Shown in pieces: positions 8,523-9,245 of a stretch of DNA of 64,000 bases. The notes below the pieces were generated by a model. The model saw only the letters and a list, made by a program, of their open reading frames with translations, searched no databases and was not told the DNA's origin. Location: the NCBI RefSeq assembly GCF_054482595.1, contig NZ_CM137008.1. One strand, given 5' to 3'. Position numbers and translations under genes: made by a program. Each line of letters begins with the position of its first letter. The first letter of the stretch is position 1.

Positions 8523-8562
8523 AGAAATCAGACCAGTGGCGAGAGTATAGGTCGGACCAGCT
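8523..8562 (-). promoter_or_regulatory. Two FadR operator boxes in the fadL promoter/leader
   Basis: Minus-strand reads AGCTGGTCCGACCTAT (8547–8562) and CACTGGTCTGATTTCT (8523–8538), matching the FadR consensus ANCTGGTCNGACNTGTT. Confidence 0.6.
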
Positions 8563-8807
8563 GGAATGTTGCAAGTATGTTTCTATCTTTTTTCAAATAT
8601 GATCTAAGAAACGCGATCCAGCTGGCAAAATTTGGAGGTGGCGCACTCATGGATTCGGGTGAATTTTGTTTTAGATCATTTTTAAGTGTGATTTCGGTCA
8701 CTTATCCGATTTTGCAGAATTAACAACTGGAGCAGCACTTTCCGGAAGCGTAAAATATCCACAACGTTTATCTGGCACCTTGGGTGCACATACAGAGGAA
8801 ATCAACG

Positions 8808-9092
8808 ATGAGTAAATGTAGTGCTGATGAAACCCCGGTTTGCTGCTGTATGGATGTTGGCACCATTATGGACAACTCCGACTGCACCGCGTCTTACAGC
8901 CGCGTGTTTGCAAACCGCGCAGAAGCAGAACAAACGCTGGCGGCGCTGACTGAGAAAGCCCGTAGCGTGGAATCCGAACCGTGCAAAATCTCCCCGACTT
9001 TCACTGAAGAGTCTGATGGTGTGCGCCTGGATATCGATTTCACTTTTGCCTGCGAAGCTGAAATGCTGATCTTCCAGCTGGGTCTGCGTTAA
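8808..9092 (+). CDS. yfcZ: UPF0381 family small protein YfcZ
   Basis: 94-aa ORF MSKCSADETPVCCCMDVG...; GAGG ribosome-binding site 8 nt upstream of ATG 8808. Confidence 0.85.
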   Translation: MSKCSADETPVCCCMDVGTIMDNSDCTASYSRVFANRAEAEQTLAALTEKARSVESEPCKISPTFTEESDGVRLDIDFTFACEAEMLIFQLGLR

Positions 9093-9110
9093 TTCCTCTC
9101 GGGTACGTAC

Positions 9111-9150
9111 GCCCCTGTCAATTGCTGGCAGGGGCGTTTTCTTTTCTCTT
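9111..9150 (+). terminator. Rho-independent terminator after yfcZ
   Basis: GCCCCTGTCA-attgc-TGGCAGGGGCG followed by TTTTCTTTTCTCTTCTTCTTTT. Confidence 0.55.
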
Positions 9151-9228
9151 CTTCTTTTCTCTCTGTGTCATAGCTCCCACTTTCCCTTTTCTCCGCTTGG
9201 CTAAATGTAAAAAAATGGTTAAGACTAT

Positions 9229-9245
9229 GATCAGGTCAGACCACT
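9229..9245 (+). promoter_or_regulatory. FadR operator upstream of fadI
   Basis: GATCAGGTCAGACCACT matches the reverse FadR consensus (AACAGGTCNGACCAGNT), 28 bp upstream of the fadI ATG. Confidence 0.55.

Follow-up and report, generated by a model that had tools for sequence, protein, structure and literature searches.

Three FadR-like boxes flank yfcZ in the stretch of DNA studied here, and the locus raises two questions: whether these boxes are operators through which FadR controls the genes on either side, and whether yfcZ takes part in that control. An earlier note on the window (the whole stretch analysed, 64,000 nucleotides) had placed two FadR-consensus boxes upstream of fadL and one upstream of fadI, had taken them as support for coordinated FadR repression of outer-membrane uptake and anaerobic beta-oxidation, and had regarded yfcZ, with a terminator of its own, as probably transcribed separately. 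The three boxes are indeed present, and the limits given for them, 8523 and 9245, each fall one base inside the 17-mers. We consider it very likely that they are the known operators of the acyl-CoA-responsive repressor FadR, of the GntR family, serving fadL and fadIJ, and that yfcZ is a separate unit. Our own evidence lies in the sequence, position, rank and conservation of the boxes and in the terminator after yfcZ; that FadR binds, that acyl-CoA releases it and that fadR mutants are derepressed we know from the literature. The three boxes are already published FadR sites, which makes the observation correct and ordinary. Nothing here is biologically new, since both fadL and fadIJ are textbook cases of FadR control in E. 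coli.

The window is Escherichia coli chromosome, and the 1.1 kb around the boxes is found at an identity of at least 95% in 5425 of 5426 complete E. coli genomes. Compared with K-12 MG1655, the fadL-yfcZ spacer is 100% identical, base for base, and the yfcZ-fadI spacer has two differences, in the loop of the terminator and at about 9196, both outside the box. Because the spacers are identical or nearly so, and because coordinates convert directly (K-12 position = 2,469,742 minus window position), the K-12 literature is directly applicable. The features of the locus are collected in Table 1. An older in-frame ATG lies upstream of the annotated fadL start, at 8442 (MVMSQK start), and YfcZ has a paralogue, YiiS, whose structure has been solved (2K3I). 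FadI and FadJ score 905.7 and 1345.2 bits against their NCBIfam models, and the stop codon of fadI overlaps the start codon of fadJ. A scan of positions 6500-10000 against Rfam at a permissive threshold gave nothing beyond a chance-level match to Spot 42 over the yfcZ 3' end and terminator, which was rejected (20.7 bits against a gathering score of 80, E = 0.9).

Table 1. Features of the fadL/yfcZ/fadIJ locus, and the fabB box, in window coordinates
Feature	Position	Strand	Description
fadL CDS	7096-8436	-	446 aa form; NCBIfam FadL equivalog, 829 bits; RefSeq annotation of identical E. coli sequence
fadL FadR operator site 2, promoter-proximal	8522-8538	-	CACTGGTCTGATTTCTA; exact match to EMSA probe fadL-FadR2
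fadL transcription start	8537	-	placed by published distance, counted from the older ATG at 8442
fadL FadR operator site 1	8546-8562	-	AGCTGGTCCGACCTATA; exact match to EMSA probe fadL-FadR1
yfcZ	8808-9092	+	DUF406 family TIGR00743, 156.6 bits; K-12 annotation
yfcZ intrinsic terminator	9109-9147	+	stem-loop 9109-9137 and T-rich tail
Predicted fadIJ promoter	9197-9225	+	-35 TTGGCT (9197-9202), 17 bp spacer, -10 TAAGAC (9220-9225); conserved blocks
fadI (fadIJ) FadR operator	9230-9246	+	ATCAGGTCAGACCACTT; best consensus match in the window, 2 mismatches
fadI-fadJ operon coding region	9273-12727	+	fadI 9273-10583, fadJ 10583-12727
fabB FadR activator box	28203-28219	+	GGCTGATCGGACTTGTT; 66 nt before the fabB ATG (28286), then a FabR palindrome

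The position of the fadL boxes is what is expected of repressing sites. Read along the fadL strand, site 1 is followed by a 7 bp gap (8539-8545) and then by site 2. With the published start, site 1 runs from about -25 to -9, across part of the -10 hexamer TATACT (8544-8549), and site 2 spans about -1 to +16 of the fadL transcript, so that both the hexamer and the start of this fad gene lie under a box. Counted back 157 bp from this start, the published CRP site falls on TGTGA-TTTCGG-TCACT, a palindrome with its centre at 8694.5, and the geometry of fadL is therefore self-consistent. The K-12 fadL promoter with its operators OL1 and OL2 (DiRusso et al. 1993; PMC3460868) has the same two 17-mers and the same spacer sequence, and nothing differs in geometry relative to the published start and CRP site. 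Feng & Cronan give an inter-site gap of 8 bp, against 7 bp here with 17-bp boxes, a difference of box-edge convention only. A scan for sigma-70 patterns returned a single promoter-like site (8628-8599, minus strand), no commoner than in shuffled sequences; at the real fadL promoter the -35 and -10 elements are about 19 bp apart, and the scan passed it over for that reason.

The binding data were obtained on DNA identical to that of the window. The gel-shift probes fadL-FadR1 and fadL-FadR2 (PMC4259882, Table 2) agree with the window at every base, over 8538-8572 and 8511-8545. FadR has equivalent affinity for both sites, with binding complete at about 50 nM, and oleoyl-CoA abolishes it; deletion of fadR derepresses fadL only 2 to 2.5-fold (Feng & Cronan 2012, PMC3460868).

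For fadIJ, a 2022 review reports direct repression by FadR, as for fadL, from sites that overlap the transcription starts, along with repression by ArcA, activation by CRP and a FadR-dependent induction by long-chain fatty acids, and describes a two-gene operon with its own promoter (PMC9329746). The box in the yfcZ-fadI spacer fits this description. Between it and the fadI ATG (9273) are 26 nt, or 27 if counted from the last base of the box to the A, and not the 28 of the earlier note, which had the box just upstream of the ATG, as it is, and its distance to within 1-2 bp. It also adjoins conserved -35- and -10-like blocks, from which a start near 9233 may be predicted; the box would then lie at about -3 to +14, over the start of a second fad gene and in agreement with the review's site overlapping the fadIJ start. 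We take the published fadIJ site to be, in all probability, 9230-9246, as this is the only above-background box in the yfcZ-fadI spacer; a full-text literature search for the sequence of the box found no match. The FadR site of E. coli fadIJ (yfcYX) described by Campbell, Morgan-Kiss & Cronan (2003, via PMC9329746) likewise concerns the same gene pair and a single box beside the fadI start, and the K-12 fadIJ promoter is identical to the window over the box and 70 nt around it. Further upstream, a CRP-like pair, TGTGT-CATAGC-TCCCA (9164-9179), is conserved across species and centred at -61.5 relative to the predicted fadI start; it is probably identical with the fadIJ CRP site of the review.

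That FadR represses fadL from two adjacent operators and fadIJ from a single one is thus a matter of record (PMC9329746, PMC3460868), and the coordinated control suggested by the earlier note is borne out. Its label 'anaerobic beta-oxidation' for FadIJ is contested. The 'anaerobic pathway' role proposed for fadIJ by Campbell et al. (2003) is now questioned, since ArcA represses fadIJ in anaerobiosis and a fadIJ mutant grows anaerobically on fatty acids (PMC9329746).

In the mechanism that we favour, FadR dimers occupy the 17-bp imperfect palindromes when long-chain acyl-CoA is absent. At fadL, two boxes 7 bp apart take in the -10 hexamer and the start of transcription; fadIJ has a single high-quality box, placed at the predicted start or just downstream of it. 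FadR bound at either promoter blocks RNA polymerase. Once FadL and FadD import and activate long-chain fatty acids, the resulting acyl-CoA binds FadR and frees the DNA, and fadL and fadIJ are derepressed, provided that CRP-cAMP is present and ArcA-P absent. The gene between them, yfcZ, has no FadR box of its own and would form a separate monocistronic unit with its own intrinsic terminator.

Might the boxes serve mainly other regulators of the FadR subfamily of GntR proteins (LldR, PdhR or GlcC-like), which recognize TGGT-N-ACCA palindromes, with FadR in a secondary role? In genomic SELEX with LldR, a peak between yfcZ and fadL was attributed to both fadL boxes, which match the LldR box at 11/14 and 9/14 positions, and the same study saw a response of fadL and yfcZ mRNA to lldR. 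PdhR binds the fadIJ promoter fragment strongly and that of fadL weakly, and a pdhR mutant has less fadI, fadJ and fadL mRNA (PMC7660256). Yet the boxes fit the FadR consensus (CTGGTCnGACC) better than they fit LldR or PdhR boxes, and the concentration at which FadR itself binds both fadL probes, its release by oleoyl-CoA, the derepression of fadL in the deletion strain and the need for FadR in fadIJ induction all speak for FadR. Moreover, the PdhR box of PMC7660256 is a different sequence, inside fadI codons 2-7. Any further regulators acting on shared boxes would supplement FadR control and not replace it. We regard a mainly non-FadR use of the boxes as very unlikely. The proposed PdhR box itself, cAgcGGTaaaACCtgac (9277-9293, a 7/14 match), lies downstream of the FadR box, and its position within fadI is an odd place for the activator role proposed in PMC7660256.

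If the boxes are FadR operators for fadL and fadIJ, the place of yfcZ remains to be considered, and here a comparison across species is informative. A YfcZ scan of species-representative genomes gave 80 loci from about 25 enterobacterial genera, 78 of them with complete flanks. Downstream of yfcZ is an intrinsic terminator of the rho-independent type, a G+C-rich hairpin and U-tract after the stop codon: a 12-pair stem with 8 G-C pairs, followed by TTTTCTTTTCT, begins 17 nt past the stop. It folds with an energy of -23.9 kcal/mol (z = -5.3), and of 200 shuffled sequences not one was as stable. A hairpin and T-run occur within 75 nt of the yfcZ stop in 71 of the 78 species, and the stem arms have changed in pairs, with GCCCCTG/CAGGGGC in E. 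coli, GCCTCCG/CGGAGGC in Salmonella and TGCCCTTGC/GCAAGGGCA in Citrobacter. The terminator that the earlier note had assigned to yfcZ is therefore real and widely kept.

This terminator weighs heavily against an arrangement in which yfcZ, fadI and fadJ form one operon read from the fadL/yfcZ spacer, the fadL boxes acting in both directions and the fadI box serving as an internal roadblock. The order of fadL (divergent), yfcZ and fadI (downstream) is invariant in all 78 Enterobacteriaceae species and the first spacer is nearly fixed at about 371 bp, as might be expected of such an operon, and fadL and yfcZ mRNA shifted together in the RpoN and LldR studies. Against this stand the strength and paired stem changes of the terminator, the conserved -35/-10-like and CRP-like blocks between it and fadI, and the two-gene fadIJ operon of the review (PMC9329746). 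The fadL boxes, too, are 246-286 bp upstream of the yfcZ ATG, with no other above-background box in that spacer. We judge a single operon to be highly improbable. A conserved terminator of its own, together with the conserved promoter-like elements of fadI, agrees with the review's two-gene fadIJ operon, and separate transcription of yfcZ, as the earlier note had supposed, is the probable state of affairs.

In seven species (L036 2286-4000; L029, L061, L062, L070, L077, L080) the stretch from yfcZ to fadI carries insertions of up to 1.7 kb; reckoned from the terminator region of yfcZ to the promoter of fadI, they amount to 50-1,550 bp. Five of the seven showed no terminator-like hairpin in the 75 nt after the yfcZ stop.

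Separate transcription of yfcZ need not mean that the gene is a bystander. As it lies between fadL and fadIJ in every sampled Enterobacteriaceae species, it may be co-regulated with them, and several elements of the fadL-yfcZ spacer bear on this. The near-perfect CRP palindrome at 8687-8702, published as an unusually distant ('atypical') activator site of fadL, is also about 68-70 bp upstream of a start predicted from a fully conserved, -10-like TAAAAT (8750-8755) facing yfcZ. It may be an ordinary class I site for yfcZ; we found no literature on CRP control of this gene. A sigma-54-type element, TGGCAC-CTTGG-GTGCA (8773-8788, plus strand), lies 19 nt before the yfcZ ATG. Its GG and GC blocks are conserved at 90% or more across the 78 species, and its 5-nt spacer at only 50-60%. 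Matches to the pattern as such are no commoner in the window than chance predicts (3 against 3.7 expected), and this one is worthy of note only because of its conservation and of published RpoN binding: in gSELEX, both RpoN holoenzyme and NtrC bind the fadL-yfcZ spacer (PMC8743547). Transcription from a sigma-54 promoter here would begin about 12 nt downstream, within the ribosome-binding site of yfcZ, in keeping with the view of PMC8743547 that such binding is repressive rather than productive. It is tempting to see in yfcZ a co-regulated part of the fatty-acid locus, under class I CRP activation and sigma-54 nitrogen control and with FadR boxes perhaps shared with LldR; we hold this to be rather unlikely as a whole.

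The fadL-yfcZ spacer (8437-8807; loci L002-L081) is mostly 370-373 bp long, with 79% mean identity over about 25 genera, and the constraint covers the whole of the 101-nt fadL leader, which is unusual for non-coding DNA. Near-fixed length and high identity suggest a dense regulatory content. Reported in this spacer are FadR, ArcA, CRP, OmpR, RybB pairing, RpoN and LldR.

How far could the boxes have been recognized by their sequence? The published FadR consensus, aaCTGGTCnGACC(T/A)Gtt, is a 17-bp imperfect palindrome (PMC9329746) and was searched as AACTGGTCNGACCTGTT. At up to 3 mismatches there are two matches in 64 kb, against 0.29 expected, and these are the fadI box, the best in the window, and fadL site 1, the second with 3 mismatches. 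Three positions have 4 mismatches, one of them the known fabB FadR site. At 5 mismatches there are 32 positions in the window, fadL site 2 among them; its left half-site is perfect and its right half degenerate. The fadI box and fadL site 1 thus match the 17-bp palindrome, and site 2 keeps the left half only, so that the two FadR-consensus boxes claimed for fadL are one such box and one half-site. A shorter core, CTGGTCNGACC, was too unspecific at 2 mismatches (60 matches against 38 expected) and was dropped.

The matrix scan suggested by the earlier note gave a similarly divided result. We built the matrix from five FadR sites (two of fadD and one each of fadBA, fabA and fabB) in the EMSA primer table of PMC4259882; as these come only from other promoters, the test is independent of the claimed boxes. 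Among 63,984 positions the top score belongs to the fabB site; the fadI box follows with 13.9 bits and then fadL site 1 with 11.9 bits, at ranks 2 and 3. Site 2 of fadL ranks 88 with a symmetric matrix or 17 with an asymmetric one, a background level by sequence alone. The matrix is weak, with a mean maximum of 12.8 bits in simulated 64 kb sequences, so scores of 11.9-13.9 bits alone are not significant window-wide. Location adds to their weight. Scores of at least 11.5 bits are expected about 1.8 times per 64 kb and about 0.015 times in the 546 bp of the two spacers, where two are seen. The claimed boxes are the top scorers within their own spacers, with fadL site 2 second in its spacer, and all others there reach about 5 bits or less.

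Conservation distinguishes the boxes to different degrees. All three are kept in the 78 Enterobacteriaceae species at the orthologous promoters, one species having a degraded fadL site 1. In the fadI box 11 of 17 positions are invariant, and no other 17-mer of its spacer is as well conserved: its mean identity is 98.4%, that of the whole spacer 69%. The box lies 23-35 nt before the fadI ATG in every one of the 78 species, including those with spacer insertions. Of 79 sequences, 78 retain the core and right half of fadL site 1, and its central position differs from one to another (A64, C12, G3) as the N of the consensus permits; site 2 shows no variation at positions 2-10 and 12-14, and 76 of the 79 have A at position 11. 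The two fadL boxes have mean identities of 95.5% and 89.1% in a spacer that itself reaches 79%, and 31 and 76 of its 355 windows, respectively, are equally conserved. Since both spacers are highly conserved overall, box conservation at fadL is supportive and not specific. Published comparative genomics also gives fadIJ and fadL as the two FadR-regulon operons common to Enterobacteriales, Vibrionales and Shewanellaceae.

A reading in which a degenerate 17-mer turns up by accident and regulates nothing has next to no probability: the matrix is weak and site 2 scores at background, but the two best consensus matches of the window both fall within the 546 bp of fad-gene spacers, the box cores are nearly invariant across species, and published EMSA, footprinting and expression data on identical DNA refute it.

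It is instructive that a reading of the sequence alone placed three operators to within 1-2 bp. Site 2 of fadL is the telling case, a weak half-site operator whose binding of FadR in vitro equals that of a near-consensus site and which is invisible to a matrix score alone; it is recognizable only by the neighbouring strong site and by conservation across species. Had a background matrix score been used as a rule of refutation, as the earlier note proposed, site 2 would have been wrongly rejected, given that it binds FadR in vitro about as well as site 1.

Elsewhere in the window, an exact FadR core, CTGGTCAGACC, occurs at 55408-55418 (plus strand) inside the 5' end of the pta coding sequence. 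It is most likely a chance match, since its flanks are off consensus and the full 17-mer is far below background. The fabB box is also within the window, which therefore holds four FadR sites and not three. The fabB site, like that of fabA, belongs to the same regulator and the same 17-bp motif family as the fad boxes. At fabA and fabB, in contrast to the fadL and fadI boxes, which overlap the -10 element or the start and repress, the box is upstream of the promoter and FadR activates.
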